Positions 1 through 63,150 of a stretch of DNA of 64,000 bases are shown here, piece after piece (position 1 is the first letter of the stretch; every line of letters starts with the position of its first letter). The notes beneath the pieces were generated by a model. That model was given only the letters and a program-made list of their open reading frames with translations, was not told the origin of the DNA and made no database searches. Source of the DNA: Eledone cirrhosa (taxonomy: Eukaryota); contig OZ024754.1 of assembly GCA_964016885.1 (NCBI GenBank), positions 5,270,001 through 5,334,000 on the forward strand, read 5' to 3'. The position numbers were made by a program, and so were the translations under genes.

Positions 1-527
1 TGCTTGTGCTCCTGCAAAAAACAAAGAAATCGTCAAATATTGTCGACGAATATCTATTCAATTTTGATAAAATGGTTTATGAACAAGAATGTTCCAGTCT
101 CGACAGGCCCAGCCTTTTGTGTTCCTGGGAGGATATTGTCCGAGGTTTGTCCATTTAGAATTTGTAATTGTTTTAGATGAGCAAACCTGTGTTTGCTGTA
201 TAGTTTCCCTTGCTGCAAAATCTCATTTTGCATTCAATAGGTTTATATAATTTACTGCCCGCATGAGAAATATCTTTAGATAATTGTTGGTATAGTCGTG
301 TGGTTAAGAAGTTGGTTCACAACCATTTGGATTCGGGTTCAATCTGAAACAGTTACACTTAGGACAAATGATAACTTCTGGAGCGTCGGGTTGAACAAGG
401 CCTCAAACATGAAATCTGTAAGAGAGAACATATTTAGACACCTGTATATAAGTATTAATTGCGTCCGTAGGCGGTATTTCGGAGGAACACTCGATGCTGT
501 TCATGAGCATATATATATATATATATA

Positions 528-786
<259 letters not shown>

Positions 787-1192: not shown

Positions 1193-3056
1193 ATAGATAT
1201 GCAACCAATAGAAATGATCGTATTTTGGAAGAGATGGGTAGTAAAATCTGAAGCTGAATTCTTGGTTATGGCTTACTAGTACCACTACCTCTCCACCCGA
1301 ACAATAAAATCCCCCAACCAAAAAAATGCCGAAAGATAACAAAATAGAATAGAACTATATAACTGCAGAATCATTGGACAGAATTTGCAGCATAAAATAA
1401 ACAAAAAAAACAAAAAAGGAAGAAAGAAAGAAGAAGCGGGTAATGTACAACCTCCTATTTGGCTGTCATTTTTACCTTCGATGGAATATATTCACGGTCA
1501 TGTCTGAGTAACTGGAACTGGTTATATTCACCAACCGATATATCGAGGTTTTTGAAATAAGAAAGGAATATACGATAATATATAATATATATAAACAGCA
1601 TTTCCATATGAAAAACATGTTACATCTACTAAAACTCTAAGACATGTCTGTATCGCGTGATTATGAATACAATGTGTGTTCCGTATTGTTCTTTTTATAT
1701 ATATTATTTTTTCCTAAGATTGTAGGGAACACAGTTTATCGTATGACTGTAGGGAAATGAGTTTTACTAGCGAAACTACTGCAAGGAATGAAACTGAATA
1801 TCTACCTAAATATGAGAACCTTCAGGTGGAAGTAAAATATAGCAAGAAGTGGGCAGAGAAAAAATAATTCATTGATTGACTGTATGTAAAAATATGCAAA
1901 TAAAAGTAACAAGACTTATACGACATTGCAGTATTGCACAAACACCGACAGAAAACACCTGCATGTAATAACAGATGCACAATATTATATTGCAAGGAAT
2001 GAATGCAATAAAGTAATACACAATATTATTTTACAATAACAGATTCTCGTTGAAAGTGTCCCGCAAAACAAATAACTGAAGCCCAGAAAAGATAATGAAG
2101 CGTTTATAACATTTTGTATTAGCAACAACTTAGTGTGAAACATGGAGTAACACTATCTTGTATGTATCATGAAAGCTTCATGGTTGTAGAAAGAACAATG
2201 GGGGAAAACTACAGATAACTGTTTAACATCTTAGAAATAACTGCGATAAAATATGTTGTTAAACACAGAGTTAACTACAGAATAGAAAGTACTTAATGCT
2301 TAACATATTTGTAGAGATAAATTGTATGTAACTGATATTTACATTTTGGTCTACCTGTGTTGATCTTTCTTATCGGAGTGTCCTGTTAGAATAAAACACA
2401 TATGTTTATATATACCCATCGAAATCAACAGAAGGCCGGACTGAGAACTTTATAGTTTTACTTCCGCAAAAACTCTATATGTATATTTCAATAGTCCAGC
2501 TTCATCATTCAAATATAATGCAAGGCACAGGCGATTTCATCGGGTGTTGTTTGCAGAATTAGTTATATAAGAGAGCAGGATTTGGGTGAACAGAAACAGA
2601 GAATAGAAAATACAAAATATATCATCAATTGTGATACGAGGATGCCCTGCCGATTCCGTGTTATTATAACGGCAGGCCATCCCCCGAGTGAGCACAAGGA
2701 AAATTAAATAACAGATAACATGGATGGTAGATTATTGTATCGACCCCGGGAGAATGAATTGTAAATTTGTCCTCAAGGATATTTGAACTCAGAACGAAAT
2801 GCCACAATCTAAACAGTAATAAAACAACAATATAGATGACGAGTTAAATATGTAATCGATATAAAAACATAAAATCAATAATGATATTTAATACTCGTGT
2901 TTCCATCCTCATTTTAGCGTTAATCGTTATATTTACTGACGTAAAAATTAATGCAAAGAATTAATGCGATAATACATAACTAATGACCGGTTAGATATCC
3001 TTTCGAATAAACACACGCACAAACATACACATGTACGTAATATATATATATATATA

Positions 3057-3228
<172 letters not shown>

Positions 3229-9773: not shown

Positions 9774-9908
<135 letters not shown>

Positions 9909-9912
9909 GAGA

Positions 9913-10031
9913 GAAGTGTGGTAAGGAACCAGGTGGACAATAACGCACCAGAGTACTCGATACTTAGTAGAGCAGTAGAGTGGGTAATAGGAAAAGAGTC
10001 AGGACCCCCGGGGTCCTGACTCTTTTCCTAT
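9913..10031. mobile_element. PLE-type terminal fragment ending in a perfect 22-bp palindrome
   Basis: Homologous to 530-666. Arms 9987-10008 and 10010-10031 surround a single C. Flanked by (GA)n and (TA)n. Confidence 0.65.
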
Positions 10032-10304
10032 ATATATATATATAGGAACGATCGACTTTCGTCAAATCGGACCGAGGAAACAATGTTTCCATTGGTCTTT
10101 CCAATTGCTAATACAAACTATCGTGGTCTAAGTAGGCTACAGAGCTGTTTAATTAGAAAGTGAACATATCTTTTAGCTATAACATCTCTGTCTGACGACC
10201 GATCCAGGCGTATATATCATTATCGTCTGTGATCAAGAAACCTTTGGTAATGGAAAAGTTATATTTTGTGTTGTTCACTTGTTCACTTTCTAATTAAAAA
10301 AAAG

Positions 10305-15857: not shown

Positions 15858-15862
<5 letters not shown>

Positions 15863-16131
15863 TGTAATAAGCAACATAAGATAATTATTTCATTTCACTA
15901 AGACAGGCGTGCCTAACGCAGACGTCTAACTTCAGGCGTCAGAATGGAAATTTATTTATTTACTTTTTATTATTTATTTTTTAAATAAATTTTCATTCTG
16001 ACGACCGAAGTCAGACGTCTGCGTCAGGCTCGTCTGTCTTCGTGAAACCTTATGTTAATTATTACATAACTAAAAAGCTCTGTAGCCTACATAGAGCACT
16101 CTCTTTTCCTTTACCTTTCCTACGGAAACAC

Positions 16132-16134
<3 letters not shown>
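15858..16134. mobile_element. Older PLE-type tail-out inverted terminal pair with degenerate hammerheads
   Basis: Imperfect inverted repeat 15858-15960 / 15983-16072. The right arm has CTGACGA-C-CGAAG-T-CAGACG...CGTCTG-T-CTTCG-T-GAAA. The tail 16073-16134 is homologous to the reverse complement of 22629-22690. Flanked by (TA)n. Confidence 0.6.
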
Positions 16135-16198
<64 letters not shown>

Positions 16199-16434
16199 CG
16201 GCGATGAATTAGTTTTGCGAGGTTTTTTATATGAAATCGTGTGTCGAAACAGATATTGTTATATTTGGGGAGGGTCATATTTGCGTAATATTGCCAGAAT
16301 TAATAATAGAACACACTCACTGTTTGGTTGGTTTTCGCTTCTCGCTGTCTTTTATATATATATATCTGCGATCTAACTTACTCGGTCCTCAATGTTGCCA
16401 TTGACTGACCGGCGGTCAAAAATAATACAGATAC

Positions 16435-16514
16435 AATATAGACAAACACATATATATATAGTTTACATAAATCTTTCGTTGCACATCTGCAACATCGTCA
16501 GTGGTGTTATATTC
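16435..16514 (-). ncRNA. Minimal type I hammerhead ribozyme in PLE 3' UTR (left copy)
   Basis: Mirror of 20211-20290. Confidence 0.6.
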
Positions 16515-16773
16515 ATTGTTCCTCCTGTTGTGTTGTATGTCTACGCCATTTTTTTTGTTCAGTCTGTCTATATATTTATTTATTTATTTGCTTGTTTGTT
16601 TATCTTATTTTATTTTGTCTTCTTTGCGCATGCGTTTGCGTGTGTGTATAGTGTTATGTGTGATGTGTGACTAGTGTGTATAGTGTTGTGTCTGCTGGGT
16701 GACTAGTGTGTGTTTATGTGCTTGTGTATGTATTTATTTATCTTATTTTATTTAATTTAATTTACTTATTTAT

Positions 16774-18567
16774 TTATACTTCTCTTAGGTCAGTGTTGTT
16801 TGTTTGGGTGTTGTTGTTGTTCCACTCATTCTTTCTGTTTAGCTGTGGTCTTCTAATTTCTATTTCACTGGCCTCTCTGATTTGCCTATCTGCTGGGTCA
16901 TTCCTATGTTTAGATATTATTCTAATTTCTATGTTGTCTATGTTACCGTCATGATGTTGTCTAGCATGTTCGTATAGTACTGACCCGTTTTTTCGTCCTT
17001 TTAGTTCCCCCCAGTGTTGGTCTATCCTTTCACCTATGCTACGAGCTGTCTCACCTATGTATGTTGTTGTCGTGTTTCTGCAAGTACCCTCTGTACATCT
17101 TATGCTATAGACTACGTTTCTAGTTTTACAGTTTATCCGGGGGTTCACCTTACATATGATACATTTCCTATTGGTACAGTGGGTTTTCTTAAAAGGGTAG
17201 GTTTTGCTGATCAGGGATTTTATGGTGGTTCCTGGCTTTTCTACCACCTTTATTTTTAAGTGGGTCTTTCTCAGGGCCTTTCTACACTGGTTAGCTAATT
17301 TCCCTCCAGGGGTGGCGTCCACAAACATGACACTCTGATATCTCTGGTTGTCGTACCATGATGTGGCCTTCCCTATCTTATGTCTAGCCCTATCTAAGCT
17401 ATTCCATGATTTGCTCCTGTATAGTGGGCAAATTCCTTTCATGTCCAGTTCTATGAGGGTCTTATACTTTTCCATGGCTCCTTCGTATACTCTGACTCTG
17501 TCTCTTTGGTTGTAGCCAGAGAACTGCATGCGGTTGATGAAGTGTTGGATGTGTCCTTCCATTTCTGTTGGGTCGCACATGCTGGACACATTCTTCATCA
17601 CTCGTACCAAATCTGCGATCAGAATATTAAACTTAGCACTACTGGACATTGCTGAGTTTTTGAGTATCAGGTATTTGGAGGCCATGGGTTTAGCATAGTG
17701 TGAGTGGAGAATTTGGGCTCTCTCGTCTATAGTGTTAATCCAGAGTTCTGTGTCTAATACAGGTAGTCTATTGTTAGGGTGTTTGGAAGGGAAGTCTATA
17801 GTTACAGTTATACTCTGGTGTATGGAATTAGCTATCTGCTGGATGCTTTCCATCGTGCTACGTTCTAAATCAAACTTGTTAGTGCTCTCTAGTGGGGGTG
17901 TTCTTATAACTATATTGATATCGTCTACATAACGAGAGTACATGATGAGGTCTATGGAGCTTTCATTAAGGAGATCTTTAAGTCTCCTTTCCCACCATAC
18001 CATGAAAAGGTTGGCAACATCGCCAGCTATGCTGACGCCGATGGCTGCTCCCTCATTTTGGGTGTAGATTTTCTCATTGAACTTAAATATGTGGCCCTTT
18101 AGGGTAGTTTTGATACTAGCCCCTATTGCATGTGCGACCATTTTTCTTACCTGATCAGTGTTTTGGGGGGTCCGTATAGCTTTGGTCCACCCAATCCACC
18201 TTCCTATGGGAGTCTTTTTAGCCATTGAGGTTATGGTGGGGGGTCTACCTCTTATAGGTCTACTAGGGCAGAAACATCTAAGGTCATGGCTGTCTAGGTA
18301 GTCAGTGTCGTAGGTAAGTCTAAGTAGGAGGCCCAGTTCGTCTGTGTCGACGTCGCAGAACTCCACCTCACTCTCAATGATCATCTCCACACATCTTTTC
18401 ACAGCAAAATCAATGTTAATGGATGGGTACAGTGACACCACATCCATGCTGCCTATTATGCAGTTGGATAGGCTCCTGTTTTTGTTGCACTCACTGATTC
18501 TGCTGAGGAGGTCCTCTGTACTTTCACATACATCTGGGGACATCTTGATTATGGGGCGTATAACCAT
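16774..18567 (-). CDS. PLE polyprotein, N-terminally truncated: reverse transcriptase + Cys linker + GIY-YIG endonuclease
   Basis: RT motifs SMDVVSLYPSI, YTQNEGAAIGVSIAGDVANLFM, YSRYVDD, LPVLD. Linker CTNRKCIIC. GIY-YIG NVVYSIRC...YIGETARSIGERIDQH...REASEI...PQLN. No stops. Confidence 0.93.
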   Translation of the reverse strand: MVIRPIIKMSPDVCESTEDLLSRISECNKNRSLSNCIIGSMDVVSLYPSINIDFAVKRCVEMIIESEVEFCDVDTDELGLLLRLTYDTDYLDSHDLRCFCPSRPIRGRPPTITSMAKKTPIGRWIGWTKAIRTPQNTDQVRKMVAHAIGASIKTTLKGHIFKFNEKIYTQNEGAAIGVSIAGDVANLFMVWWERRLKDLLNESSIDLIMYSRYVDDINIVIRTPPLESTNKFDLERSTMESIQQIANSIHQSITVTIDFPSKHPNNRLPVLDTELWINTIDERAQILHSHYAKPMASKYLILKNSAMSSSAKFNILIADLVRVMKNVSSMCDPTEMEGHIQHFINRMQFSGYNQRDRVRVYEGAMEKYKTLIELDMKGICPLYRSKSWNSLDRARHKIGKATSWYDNQRYQSVMFVDATPGGKLANQCRKALRKTHLKIKVVEKPGTTIKSLISKTYPFKKTHCTNRKCIICKVNPRINCKTRNVVYSIRCTEGTCRNTTTTYIGETARSIGERIDQHWGELKGRKNGSVLYEHARQHHDGNIDNIEIRIISKHRNDPADRQIREASEIEIRRPQLNRKNEWNNNNTQTNNTDLREV

Positions 18568-19951
18568 TGATCAGGTAAGAAAAATGGTCGCACATGCAAT
18601 AGGGGCTAGTATCAAAACTACCCTAAAGGGCCACATATTTAAGTTCAATGAGAAAATCTACACCCAAAATGAGGGAGCAGCCATCGGCGTCAGCATAGCT
18701 GGCGATGTTGCCAACCTTTTCATGGTATGGTGGGAAAGGAGACTTAAAGATCTCCTTAATGAAAGCTCCATAGACCTCATCATGTACTCTCGTTATGTAG
18801 ACGATATCAATATAGTTATAAGAACACCCCCACTAGAGAGCACTAACAAGTTTGATTTAGAACGTAGCACGATGGAAAGCATCCAGCAGATAGCTAATTC
18901 CATACACCAGAGTATAACTGTAACTATAGACTTCCCTTCCAAACACCCTAACAATAGACTACCTGTATTAGACACAGAACTCTGGATTAACACTATAGAC
19001 GAGAGAGCCCAAATTCTCCACTCACACTATGCTAAACCCATGGCCTCCAAATACCTGATACTCAAAAACTCAGCAATGTCCAGTAGTGCTAAGTTTAATA
19101 TTCTGATCGCAGATTTGGTACGAGTGATGAAGAATGTGTCCAGCATGTGCGACCCAACAGAAATGGAAGGACACATCCAACACTTCATCAACCGCATGCA
19201 GTTCTCTGGCTACAACCAAAGAGACAGAGTCAGAGTATACGAAGGAGCCATGGAAAAGTATAAGACCCTCATAGAACTGGACATGAAAGGAATTTGCCCA
19301 CTATACAGGAGCAAATCATGGAATAGCTTAGATAGGGCTAGACATAAGATAGGGAAGGCCACATCATGGTACGACAACCAGAGATATCAGAGTGTCATGT
19401 TTGTGGACGCCACCCCTGGAGGGAAATTAGCTAACCAGTGTAGAAAGGCCCTGAGAAAGACCCACTTAAAAATAAAGGTGGTAGAAAAGCCAGGAACCAC
19501 CATAAAATCCCTGATCAGCAAAACCTACCCTTTTAAGAAAACCCACTGTACCAATAGGAAATGTATCATATGTAAGGTGAACCCCCGGATAAACTGTAAA
19601 ACTAGAAACGTAGTCTATAGCATAAGATGTACAGAGGGTACTTGCAGAAACACGACAACAACATACATAGGTGAGACAGCTCGTAGCATAGGTGAAAGGA
19701 TAGACCAACACTGGGGGGAACTAAAAGGACGAAAAAACGGGTCAGTACTATACGAACATGCTAGACAACATCATGACGGTAACATAGACAACATAGAAAT
19801 TAGAATAATATCTAAACATAGGAATGACCCAGCAGATAGGCAAATCAGAGAGGCCAGTGAAATAGAAATTAGAAGACCACAGCTAAACAGAAAGAATGAG
19901 TGGAACAACAACAACACCCAAACAAACAACACTGACCTAAGAGAAGTATAA
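18344..19951 (+). CDS. Second PLE ORF copy (genuine part 18568-19951; lacks RT motif A; first ~75 aa are antisense spacer read-through)
   Basis: Identical to the minus copy from DQVRKMVAH to the stop. Confidence 0.85.
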   Translation: MSTSQNSTSLSMIISTHLFTAKSMLMDGYSDTTSMLPIMQLDRLLFLLHSLILLRRSSVLSHTSGDILIMGRITIDQVRKMVAHAIGASIKTTLKGHIFKFNEKIYTQNEGAAIGVSIAGDVANLFMVWWERRLKDLLNESSIDLIMYSRYVDDINIVIRTPPLESTNKFDLERSTMESIQQIANSIHQSITVTIDFPSKHPNNRLPVLDTELWINTIDERAQILHSHYAKPMASKYLILKNSAMSSSAKFNILIADLVRVMKNVSSMCDPTEMEGHIQHFINRMQFSGYNQRDRVRVYEGAMEKYKTLIELDMKGICPLYRSKSWNSLDRARHKIGKATSWYDNQRYQSVMFVDATPGGKLANQCRKALRKTHLKIKVVEKPGTTIKSLISKTYPFKKTHCTNRKCIICKVNPRINCKTRNVVYSIRCTEGTCRNTTTTYIGETARSIGERIDQHWGELKGRKNGSVLYEHARQHHDGNIDNIEIRIISKHRNDPADRQIREASEIEIRRPQLNRKNEWNNNNTQTNNTDLREV

Positions 19952-20210
19952 ATAAATAAGTAAATTAAATTAAATAAAATAAGATAAATAAATACATACA
20001 CAAGCACATAAACACACACTAGTCACCCAGCAGACACAACACTATACACACTAGTCACACATCACACATAACACTATACACACACGCAAACGCATGCGCA
20101 AAGAAGACAAAATAAAATAAGATAAACAAACAAGCAAATAAATAAATAAATATATAGACAGACTGAACAAAAAAAATGGCGTAGACATACAACACAACAG
20201 GAGGAACAAT

Positions 20211-20290
20211 GAATATAACACCACTGACGATGTTGCAGATGTGCAACGAAAGATTTATGTAAACTATATATATATGTGTTTGTCTATATT
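20211..20290 (+). ncRNA. Minimal type I hammerhead ribozyme in PLE 3' UTR/pLTR (right copy)
   Basis: CTGACGA(20224-30)-T-GTTGCA-gatg-TGCAAC-GAAA-GATT-TA. Stem III is quasi-palindromic; stem I is interrupted (CA/TG, then AACAC/GTGTT). HHRs in PLE pLTRs are established. Confidence 0.6.
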
Positions 20291-20464
20291 GTATCTGTAT
20301 TATTTTTGACCGCCGGTCAGTCAATGGCAACATTGAGGACCGAGTAAGTTAGATCGCAGATATATATATATAAAAGACAGCGAGAAGCGAAAACCAACCA
20401 AACAGTGAGTGTGTTCTATTATTAATTCTGGCAATATTACGCAAATATGACCCTCCCCAAATAT

Positions 20465-20506
<42 letters not shown>

Positions 20507-22611: not shown

Positions 22612-22628
22612 TATATATATATATATAT

Positions 22629-22800
22629 GAAGTAATTCCATCGGAAAAGTCCAGGAAAAAAGAGTGCTCTATGTATGCAACAGAGCTTAATTATTATTAT
22701 TATGTAATAAACAACATAAGGCAATTATTCCATTTACCAGTGGTTTCTTAAAAGCAAAAGGTTTTGCTTTCAATCCTCAGAACGGGAAAAAGCTGGTTTG
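22629..22800 (-). mobile_element. PLE-type 3' terminus (pLTR fragment) ending in (TA)n
   Basis: Homologous to 15860-15900 and 16050-16134; carries an HHR. Confidence 0.65.
22728..22788 (-). ncRNA. Type I hammerhead ribozyme
   Basis: Reverse complement: TTCCCGTT-CTGAGGA-TTGAAAGCAAA-acct-TTTGCTTTTAA-GAAA-CCA-C-TGG-TA-AATGGAA. Full core, three stems, GUA site. Confidence 0.8.
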
Positions 22801-24767: not shown

Positions 24768-24775
24768 TCGTTTCT

Positions 24776-24955
24776 GAATTTGTTTAGCAAGATTCTTTAT
24801 CTGAAAACGTGCGTTAAAACCGGTATTGTTATGCTTTGGGAGGGTCATGTTGCCAATAAGAAACACACGCACCAGTTACTTTCACTCCAATTTATCATAA
24901 ATAAAATTTATAAATTTCCGGTTGGTTGGTTGCTTCCATAACCGGACGGTTGTTC
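24776..24955 (-). mobile_element. Diverged 3' terminus of a relative of the main PLE
   Basis: GAATTTGTTTAGCAAG...GGTATTGTTATGCTTTGGGAGGGTCAT...ACACACGCAC aligns with 16205-16330; between (TA)n tracts. Confidence 0.65.
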
Positions 24956-25019
24956 ATATATATATATATATAGATACATGTGTATATATATATATATATA
25001 TATATATTATACTATATTG

Positions 25020-25100
<81 letters not shown>

Positions 25101-25111
25101 ACATAGTTATT

Positions 25112-25630
25112 GATCTCTCCATGGCTCTTTGAGCCGTTACCAACCTCTGCTCTTCTCTCTTCGTTGTAGCCCAGCTTTCACTGCCATATAACATTGCAGG
25201 TAAAACTGTGCTAAGAAGAGGTTGGCACGGGTGGTCTTGTCCAACCTCCCCTTGAGCACATACCTTATGGCGTTGAACACCTTCCATGCTAGGAATCTCG
25301 TTGAGAAAGCACATCAGGAGCGATGTCGTCAGACAGAAGTCCGGCGTGAGGGACGTCATCACGGAATATATGCGCAGCAAGTTCAGATGGGCTGGACACG
25401 TCGCCCGGTTCACCGATAATCGGTGGACCCGCGCAGTTGCCGAGTGGTACCCGCGCGAGCGGAAACGACCACTCGGAAGGCCTCCACGAGGGTGGAGGTA
25501 CGATTTTAGGATTACGATTGGGACTAGATGGATGAGGAAAGCACTATCCAGAGAGGAATGGACGGCATGCTGTGATCAGCGGCGCCTAATCGGCACCCGA
25601 CAGACTTGTCCGTCAAGGTGATCAAGGTGA
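25112..25630 (+). mobile_element. RTE-like LINE 3' fragment with 5' inversion
   Basis: The minus part (25112-25285) encodes ...MLYGSESWATTKREEQRLVTAQRAMERS. The plus part continues MLGISLRKHIRS...RWAGHVAR...GRPPRGW. TCAAGGTGA x2 tail. Confidence 0.85.
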
Positions 25631-41870: not shown

Positions 41871-42195
<325 letters not shown>

Positions 42196-42236
42196 CGAAA
42201 CATAAGTCAATTGCATTAACTCATAATCCTTTATTT

Positions 42237-42292
42237 ACTGCTATATATATTTCGATGATAGCCATTGAACGGCTATGACCTCATCAGGCAGT
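42237..42292 (-). ncRNA. Type I hammerhead ribozyme within a PLE-type terminus (42192-42355)
   Basis: Reverse complement: ACTGC-CTGATGA-GGTCATAGCC-gttcaat-GGCTATCATC-GAAA-TATATA-TA-GCAGT. Perfect 5-bp stem I; palindromic stem III. Confidence 0.85.
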
Positions 42293-42558
42293 TAGTCAGT
42301 TCTTAGAAATGGCAGCTCTGTGTGTATAGTGTTGATGGTATCAGAGCCTTGGGACATATATATAAGTATGTATGTATGGCAGCAAAGATATTTTGCTTTT
42401 AAAAAGAATTTGGTTGCAGAAAGTTAAACGCATGAAGCTCAACATAGTCTCTTTAACTAGCCATGTTGTGAAGTATGTTTGGAGGATATAAGCCATCAGG
42501 CAAGCATACAAATAGACAGAGTGTTGGATAAAGATAGCGATATATATATATATATATA

Positions 42559-60076: not shown

Positions 60077-60923
60077 ATCTCTACCAGATATTTTGTTTTA
60101 GTCTCATTCATTCTGAGCCCCACACTCATCAACACAGACTCCTGCATCAAATCCTCTGGCTCCTTCACTGTATTTGTCACCATAACTATGTCGTCGGCAA
60201 ATTCAGCATCCGATATCTTTTTCGCTTTAACTCTCCTGCTCTGAGCCGGTGCTACAGTAAAGCCAGAGTCCTGGTGTTTCTCCAGTGCAAGGCGCATTAC
60301 ATAGTCCAGAGGGGATCACTAATGTAAGCGGGATGCCGCTAGAATGGGTTGAGAACTTCCTTTATTTGGGTGCAAAGATTGGGAATACGGAAGATGATGT
60401 GGTTGAGAGGAAGAGCAAATCTTGGGCGGCGTGCCACAGCTTGAGATCGGTGTGGTAGTCGGACCTTCGTAAAGACCTGAAAATCCTCCTCTTCATTGCT
60501 GTAGTGGAGTCTGTGCTGCTGTACGGGTCTGAGACTTGGACACTGACCAAGAAACTCATTCAGATGGTGGAATGGTGCTACACGAGAATGCTGAGGATGG
60601 CTCTGAACATTAATCAGTATACACGGAGGATGAAAAACTCAGAGGTGTATGGGATCCTCCCAAAAGTCAGCTCAAAAGTGACACAAAGCAGACTGAGGTT
60701 AGCTGGCCATGCTCACCGACATCCAGAGTTGACATTGCACTCAGTGCTCCTGTGGGAGCCCCTACATGGACACACTGGAAGAGGAAGACCAAGGTTAACG
60801 TATGTTGTTGCCCTAAGGACAGACACTGGTCTGTTGGAGACGCATGACATGGTAGCGATAATGAGGGACAGAGACCGCTGGAGAGAACTCGTCCATGGAT
60901 CTCGGGAATTTTCCCCGCCCTAG
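60077..60923 (+). mobile_element. RTE-like LINE 3' fragment with 5' inversion
   Basis: The minus segment 60077-60310 encodes the RT EFADDI...GLRMNETKTK. The plus segment continues VENFLYLG...[12 protein letters not shown]...RLAGHAHR (one stop). Confidence 0.88.
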
Positions 60924-61529: not shown

Positions 61530-61874
61530 CCAGAGACAAGTGTCTGTCCTTCAGGCAACTATATATGTCAACGTCTGCCTCCCTCTTCTAGTGTGTCCGT
61601 GTAGAGGCTCCCACAGGAACACCGAGTACAGTGTCAACTCTGAATTTCGGTAGGCAAGTCCAGTTAAACTCAGTATCCTCAGTATCCTGTTAATTTCGAG
61701 ATGGCCATCCTCAACACTCTCGAGTAGCACCCATCCACTATCTGAATAAGTTTCTAGGTCAATGCCCAAGTCTCAGACCCGTACAGTAGCACAGACTCCA
61801 CCTCGGCAACGAAGAGACGGATCTTCAGATCTTTACGAAGGTCCGACTTCCGCACAGATCTCAAACTGTGGCAC

Positions 61875-61878
<4 letters not shown>
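61530..61878 (-). mobile_element. Decayed copy of the 60310-60923 RTE-like family
   Basis: Reverse complement aligns with GGCGTGCCACAG...TCGGACCTTCGTAAAGA...GGGTCTGAGACTTGG...CATGGACACACT. Confidence 0.75.
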
Positions 61879-61914
<36 letters not shown>

Positions 61915-62466: not shown

Positions 62467-62468
<2 letters not shown>

Positions 62469-62686
62469 GTTATTCCGGGTTGAATCGGAGGTAACCACAG
62501 TAAGTAAGGTACTCAATACATTGCAGTGTATAAAAGTTTTAATATAGATGAGATTCTACAGGACTAGAACTGTTTCATTCTTTAGAAATCATCCTTCTTT
62601 TTTTTATACATAAAACTCTTTTCGTTTGTTTAGAGATTCCTGATGATTTCTAAAGAATGAAACAGTTCTAGTCCTGTAGAATCTCA

Positions 62687-62690
<4 letters not shown>
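62467..62690. mobile_element. PLE-type tail-out inverted terminal pair with a 41-bp junction insert
   Basis: 62543-62593 is the reverse complement of 62642-62692; left-only tail 62467-62542; (TA)n on both sides. Confidence 0.75.
62633..62685 (+). ncRNA. Type I hammerhead ribozyme
   Basis: GAGATTC-CTGATGA-T-TTC-taaa-GAA-T-GAAA-CAG-ttctagtc-CTG-TA-GAATCTC. Perfect 7-bp stem I, stem III with a real loop, GUA site. Confidence 0.85.
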
Positions 62691-62747
<57 letters not shown>

Positions 62748-63150
62748 GCATATCCAATCATCTATCAACATGCACCACATGAATATGGTTTTTAATATAT
62801 ATGTTTTGGTAGCGATTCGAGTAGATATAGATACACAAATAAAAAATACGTTTGCGTGTATTTGTTTTTCTGATTAAATTTTCCTTCTTTTTTTTATACA
62901 TAAAACTCTTTTCGTTTGTTTAGTTTCTGCTTTCGTGCAGACACTTCTATATTTGTATGTATTACGTCTAGATTAACATGGACATGTATCTCCACAACTC
63001 TACCTAGAGATCTCTGTCATATATATATGTGGCCGGACACCTTCAATTGAACAGACACGCACATACTCATACATACAGGTACATACCTGTACATACCTGT
63101 ACATACTCATACATACAGGTACATACCTGTACATCGATATATATATATAT

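Follow-up and report, generated by a model that had tools for sequence, protein, structure and literature searches.

The palindrome at positions 9987-10031 of the window (the whole 64,000-nucleotide stretch of the Eledone cirrhosa contig OZ024754.1 that was analyzed) consists of two head-to-head 22-bp stubs of one repeat end, of which the left one is tailed. It is a real, minimal example of a structure known from Penelope-like elements (PLEs), with an unproven coincidence at a predicted hammerhead cleavage site. The stub pair is likely a minimal PLE insertion, a membership assigned by architecture because the family's own open reading frame (ORF) was not found. On balance, we think that the palindrome most likely arose from uncut RNA through two short cDNAs joined at a CG that overlaps the site, and this single copy is likely not proof that the ribozyme cuts in living cells.

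Comparison of the window with itself confirmed the perfect palindrome reported in the first-pass annotation: two exact reverse-complement arms of 22 bp (9987-10008 and 10010-10031) flank C10009 in a 45-mer. Among the window's non-microsatellite palindromes whose spacer is 0 to 3 nt, it is the longest, the runner-up having arms of 13 bp, and the computed chance expectation for a palindrome of this type is ~6e-7 per window. Both arms had been said to start exactly at the cleavage site, which is correct for the left arm and, for the right arm, depends on counting the central C as a spacer; C10009 is also the letter C17, and it is just as legitimate to let the right arm begin one base before the predicted site. 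The same annotation had proposed that an RNA end was copied from both sides of the target, and the locus does hold two separate copies in opposite orientations, an inverted one of 95 nt with its tail (9914-10008) and a direct one that is tail-less. The stretch from 9914 to 9993 is 85% identical to 535-610 over 80 columns. As a whole, the window is rich in AT and in microsatellites and resembles animal DNA, and a SINE-like stretch near 300-370 is, we presume, reminiscent of octopus SINEs. Feature coordinates are collected in Table 1.

Table 1. Features of the palindrome locus, its sister copies, and comparator insertions in the window
Feature	Positions	Strand	Remark
(TA)n(GA)n microsatellite, left flank, likely target	9780..9913	.	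Target-site duplication unreadable in repeat
Tail, optional 3' extension of element, inverted	9914..9986	-	~9 nt of outer end missing at palindrome locus
Inverted 5'-truncated copy, 22 bp, ends at predicted cleavage site	9987..10008	-	Other copies continue as reverse complement of half-core
Central C: templated C17, untemplated base, or +1 slip in C run	10009	+	Direct copies align from 10009 on
Direct 5'-truncated copy, 22 bp, to short tail-less 3' end TTCCTAT	10010..10031	+	Homologous to 648-667 and 3074-3054(-)
(AT)n right flank	10032..10043	.	Sequence
Sister copy 1: tail 527-603, 8-bp inverted arm 604-611, direct part from 611, predicted half-core 625-647; no CTGANGA	527..667	+	Sequence comparison
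Sister copy 3: direct part only, begins 45 nt before predicted site; predicted half-core, no CTGANGA	3054..3119	-	Sequence comparison
Different family: PLE with RT + GIY-YIG-like ORF, two inverted 5'-truncated copies, tail left only	16199..20472	.	ORFs, self-comparison
Small copy of the 16199-20472 PLE: tail + 4-nt inverted arm, joined to direct copy via 4-nt microhomology ATTG	41979..42150	-	
Third family: tail + 50-nt inverted arm, 32 nt past own predicted cleavage site; 2-nt junction microhomology TC	62468..62691	+	

The cleavage site is predicted from the sister copies. In copy 1, GAAA (625-628) leads into a 5-bp stem III whose loop contains GAGCTC, then into GTC (645-647), and GGGGTCCT starts at 648, so that the arm directly follows GAAA-stem III-GTC, just as had been stated for the copy at 625-666. 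GAAA, stem III, and the NUH triplet are present in copy 1 (stem III of 5 bp) and in copy 3 (4 bp, one of them G-T), and the same GAAA-stem III-GTC pattern appears in the read consensus, with no compensatory double change among the copies. All three window copies lack stem I, the CTGANGA (CUGANGA in RNA) half, and the stem II 5' strand, each copy starting 3' of the place expected for CTGANGA; the CUGANGA half is also missing from the best 24 of 384 loose ends in the public data described below (30 letters displayed each). At E values up to 10, no hammerhead emerged from Rfam searches of 520-670 and 9914-10300, where the matches were microsatellite or hairpin noise, and no hammerhead was among the matches listed for the whole window (150 of 353). 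Folding of copies 1 and 3, from which the 5' half of the motif is absent, yielded z-scores of -0.46 and 0.05 and no hammerhead fold; in a competing fold of copy 1, the stem III strand is paired to the strand presumed to form stem II. The 3' half and its context thus suggest a putative hammerhead, an incomplete membership from which self-cleavage after GUC is predicted. In both sister copies, a self-complementary CG is centered exactly on the predicted site, although it comprises only 2 nt and is one of 11 self-complementary centers between the start of copy 1's direct part and the site.

For the wider family, we compared 9914-10063 with public data from 4 of 23 listed runs under the same species label (X1, X2, X4, and X21, of which X1 and X2 are one sample). 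Matches were obtained with 7040 (X1), 6532 (X2), and 182 (X4) contigs and with 14572 X21 reads, so the repeat family is abundant. Loose-end and joint results refer to the 24 best-supported of 384 loose ends and to 15 of the 22 joints. Loose ends beyond 10008 agree on the half-core in reverse complement, in 192 X1, 201 X2, and 9 X4 contigs as well as in 1916 X21 reads, and a further 2889 X21 reads from a copy-1-like subfamily, which diverge behind 9993, likewise run through the site. Before 10009, the loose ends of 130 and 133 contigs carry the same half-core in the sense orientation. Where the family tail meets (TA)n, it stops abruptly, as 6142 X21 reads show by coming loose before 9917 (agreement of 0.9).

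The left arm is, then, an inverted copy of the element end with a tail of ~80 nt and not the native strand of stem I. The first-pass annotation had asked whether this arm equals the 5' strand of stem I, and it does not: other copies continue from it into the reverse-complement half-core. This also disposes of the alternative offered at that stage, a precise deletion of the catalytic core between the two native strands of stem I. Such a deletion had a superficial appeal in that the sequence left of the arm is common to copy 1 in the same orientation and resembles native upstream sequence; however, this shared part stops sharply at (TA)n, as a tail would, and the listed consensus beyond the left arm is, in each of the four runs, reverse-complement half-core rather than CTGANGA. 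We give a core deletion practically no credence, on the basis of the best 24 of 384 loose ends. Both arms carry the majority letters of the family in the run consensus, and for that reason their identity is no proof that they derive from a single RNA molecule. Patterns of the palindrome family had no matches in public viral contigs and none in metagenomes; 22 pattern loci in public collections, with 14-29 aligned bases and little similarity past the search pattern, lay in unrelated DNA of 42-71% GC and were dropped.

The locus and its five C are known from the assembly alone because none of the listed public contigs covers all of 9914-10063. Homopolymer length errors are common, and the best runs contain 0.60 of the sampled words, both of which would suit an assembly or sequencing error in the junction or in just the fifth C. 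Similar center-crossing pieces exist in the public contigs, however, and the architecture is that of other insertions, which makes such an error very improbable.

This architecture is what points to PLEs. Inserted PLEs are described as carrying an inverted 5'-truncated copy with a one-sided tail (Craig et al. 2021, PMC8557442, Fig. 2 legend), and palindromes are reported to be abundant at inverted PLE junctions (Arkhipova et al. 2013, PMC3846280). At the palindrome locus, an inverted 5'-truncated copy stands head-to-head with a direct copy, and both ends of the insertion lie in microsatellite; the tails at 9914-9986 and 527-603 are on the inverted side only, the family has two sharp 3' ends, and all three window copies adjoin (TA)n. 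No ORF with reverse transcriptase (RT) and GIY-YIG domains is adjacent to any of these three copies, and the ORF-bearing PLE of the window has different ends.

That ORF-bearing PLE, at 16199-20472, is young: its two copies form a perfectly complementary inverted repeat of 1903 bp with open frames of 598 and 545 amino acids and a left tail of ~55 nt. It has a complete hammerhead-like core at 20224 and at 16501, and its junction lies inside TGATCA. The ORF gave a sub-threshold Pfam match to RVT_1 (E of 1e-4), no Pfam match in the C-terminal 190 amino acids, and no PDB match; its GIY-YIG-like motifs were read by eye. The arrangement of a tail, an inverted truncated copy, a direct truncated copy, and (TA)n recurs in the window, with related forms at 41979-42150, 62468-62691, 10044-10298, and 15858-16137. 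The form at 10044-10298, directly right of the palindrome, belongs to a second PLE-like family and comprises a tail, a 19-bp inverted arm, and a degenerate full core (CTGACGA at 10192); its relatives are at 15858-16137, where both arms extend through the whole core, and at 22626-22780. An older, diverged tail with an inverted arm of ~27 bp at 24775-24851 is related to the PLE at 16 to 20 kb, and no direct arm was recognized there.

Several further repeats were noted. Tails in the window measure ~55-80 nt (9914-9986, 527-603, 16072-16137, 62468-62543, and 16199-16252), against 30-40 nt in published cases, and those at 527 and 62468 have the motif GTACTCAATAC in common. At 42235-42300 (-) is a complete type I hammerhead-like motif that ends near a TA repeat and has no relative in the window; its stem I is 5 bp long and its stem III is TA-rich. 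The 48 bp at 62876-62923 are 96% identical to 62586-62633, ~290 bp apart, and represent either a local duplication or another fragment of that family. A minisatellite with a period of 11/22 bp runs from 31297 for at least 600 bp, and three fragments (25012-25575 [-], 60459-60923 [+], and 61600-61900 [-]) look by eye like the C-terminal parts of RTE-type LINEs.

The first-pass annotation interpreted the junction as a genomic fossil of ribozyme cleavage in vivo. This is unsupported, as the dominant class of copies runs through the site in both orientations. Among the best 24 of 384 loose ends, the dominant class crosses GUC/GGGG, the boundary at which a pile-up of truncations had been predicted; a small enrichment, of a few percent, is compatible with these data because only the best-supported loose ends are listed. 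A narrower proposal is that a minority class of family insertions, the palindrome included, was copied from hammerhead-cleaved RNA, in which case both cDNAs (~100 nt tailed and 22 nt tail-less) would have run off its 5' end and been joined end to end with one untemplated base. We consider this minority route unlikely but deserving of serious attention. The predicted site coincides exactly with the end of the left arm and lies at most one base from that of the right arm, and the junction as written has no overlap, unlike those at 42 kb and 62.6 kb. The sole extra base, on the other hand, is C17, which the cleaved 3' product lacks; most arms cross the site; and the CUGANGA half and stem I are unseen, as detailed above for the three window copies and the listed loose ends. 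Evidence from the anole PLE cuts both ways: PLE hammerheads are able to cleave in the presence of the PLE protein, but the accessible parts of that study describe RNA sequencing without any read whose start or end falls on the site (PMC11167929).

A few other contigs are joined at or near the center, as the minority route would have it, but the size of this center-crossing class is not far above a rough chance model. In X21, 10009-10010 lies within 42 reads at a distance from the read ends, and 21-23 of these reads have matching letters there, versus 2780 reads at 10000 (~0.8% of arm reads; RAD reads sample few loci). The summed depth of X1, which is no copy number, is 467-470 at the center versus 201118 (~0.2%), and about a third of it comes from direct copies extended through mismatches. 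There is at least one other center-crossing locus (X1 record 8 and X2 record 16, with 8-9 other letters and 5 gaps, of which ~3 are expected from the tail); X4 record 24 and the joint from 10007 to 10012 likewise lie at the center. A joint with an X1 summed depth of 644 forms, as compared by eye, a near-perfect palindrome centered on CGGCCG, 16 nt upstream of the site, and symmetric junctions therefore arise without cleavage. In other joints, the direct arm begins in loop III or near loop II. Several arm ends of the family lie close to the presumed loop II, ~37-45 nt ahead of the predicted site (611, 3119, and three listed joints), a cluster that may reflect stalling at the stem II hairpin, in a joint table that is biased to at most 40 letters.

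Within the window, 2 of 15 arm ends in eight insertions fall at a predicted site, both of them at the palindrome locus. Sites of other families were placed by eye on their cores, and 24775-24851, 22626-22780, and the motif at 42287, which are without a core or without an examined paired arm, were left out of the count. Under assumed stop rates of 1-3% per nt, two independent arms would both end within one base of the named site in 0.04-0.4% of cases, rising to 2-6% if junctions are symmetric, in a rough model and for a locus chosen after the fact. Blunt joining of run-off products and annealing at CG are indistinguishable from the sequence because both yield CCCCGGGG.

The origin that we favor, from uncut RNA, can be laid out in steps modeled on the anole system and on neighboring junctions. 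A PLE protein would nick both strands of the TA repeat, and reverse transcription would proceed on each strand from one of two internal sites ~80 nt apart, leaving a one-sided tail. Both cDNAs would halt early and pair at the complementary CG, giving CCCCGGGG; as both have the same sequence, direct pairing is limited to complementary letters, here CG. Annealing at CG predicts four C, not five, and one more event is therefore needed: the fifth C would stem from a slip or, instead of annealing, from an overlap-free join that includes C17. The anatomy of arms, tail, and orientation, the read-through of the site by most copies, and the microhomology junctions of neighboring insertions are demonstrated; the joining chemistry proposed for 9987-10031 draws on those neighboring junctions and on the anole PLE. 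For the latter, in vitro work found that both strands are nicked and extended and that two internal start sites define the tail (Frangieh et al. 2024, PMC11167929); uncut RNA was the dominant in vitro substrate, and hammerhead mutants inserted normally (PMC11167929). Counting against this route are the low probability of the coincidence of both arms (the 0.04-0.4% given above), the existence of at least one other center-crossing locus, and the lack of a linked ORF.

The retained C17 would also be accounted for if a long, perfect inverted insertion had been extruded as a hairpin and had later lost its middle, by deletion or by resection and rejoining at C/G runs. Central deletion is known in palindromes, and a long perfect inverted repeat (that of 1903 bp) does exist in the window. 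Against a later loss, no orthologous longer allele was seen, and other copies, with short arms of 4 and 8 bp, indicate that early stops at insertion are common; we judge it decidedly improbable, and early halting of both cDNAs on uncut RNA stays our preferred account.

Were the minority route from cleaved RNA true, such palindromes would be a germline DNA record of PLE ribozyme cleavage, countable from genome assemblies. If junctions were truly in excess at the site, DNA could give the answer on cleavage, for which 9987-10031 alone is insufficient. In families with thousands of tiny inverted insertions, both cDNA ends can be mapped per event and the cleavage site compared with other self-complementary positions, and such a two-ended map would also be informative on how inverted PLE junctions form.

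Among known systems, non-LTR retrozymes (Cervera and de la Pena 2020, PMC7229834; Li et al. 2026 preprint) likewise place type I hammerheads in short noncoding animal repeats, but they are arranged in tandem, whereas the palindrome-family copies are dispersed, inverted, and tailed; tandem head-to-tail units were absent from the window, where all three copies are solitary. With PLE-type type I hammerheads (Cervera and de la Pena 2014, PMC4209133), the predicted motif shares C-GAAA, stem III with a palindromic loop 3 (GAGCTC), and GUC; its stem III, at 4-5 bp, is longer than that of minimal metazoan hammerheads, and it differs from the PLE-type motif in that no CUGANGA half, stem I, or stem II 5' strand was seen. 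The anole element PAc, a Poseidon PLE (PMC11167929), is comparable in its two internal start sites, extension on both strands, AT-rich targets, and insertion from uncut RNA; it comes from a different species and family, the mechanism of the palindrome is proposed from sequence, and the accessible parts of the PAc study are silent on how the two cDNAs join. From described PLE insertions, the palindrome differs in that its junction falls on a predicted cleavage site, a placement missing from the literature surveyed: sources mostly outside subscription journals, the accessible parts of PMC4209133, PMC7229834, PMC6431247, and bioRxiv 10.64898/2026.07.22.740005 included, do not describe an accumulation of PLE truncations at the hammerhead site. 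It further differs from endonuclease-bearing PLE insertions, as far as these are described in the available portions of PMC3846280 and PMC8557442, in its extremely short arms (22 bp), a tail of ~80 nt versus 30-40 nt, and the lack of any ORF or full pLTR seen for its family. What it has in common with them is the head-to-head copy, the junction palindrome, the one-sided tail, the 5' truncation, the TA-microsatellite target, and a hammerhead-like motif near the 3' end.
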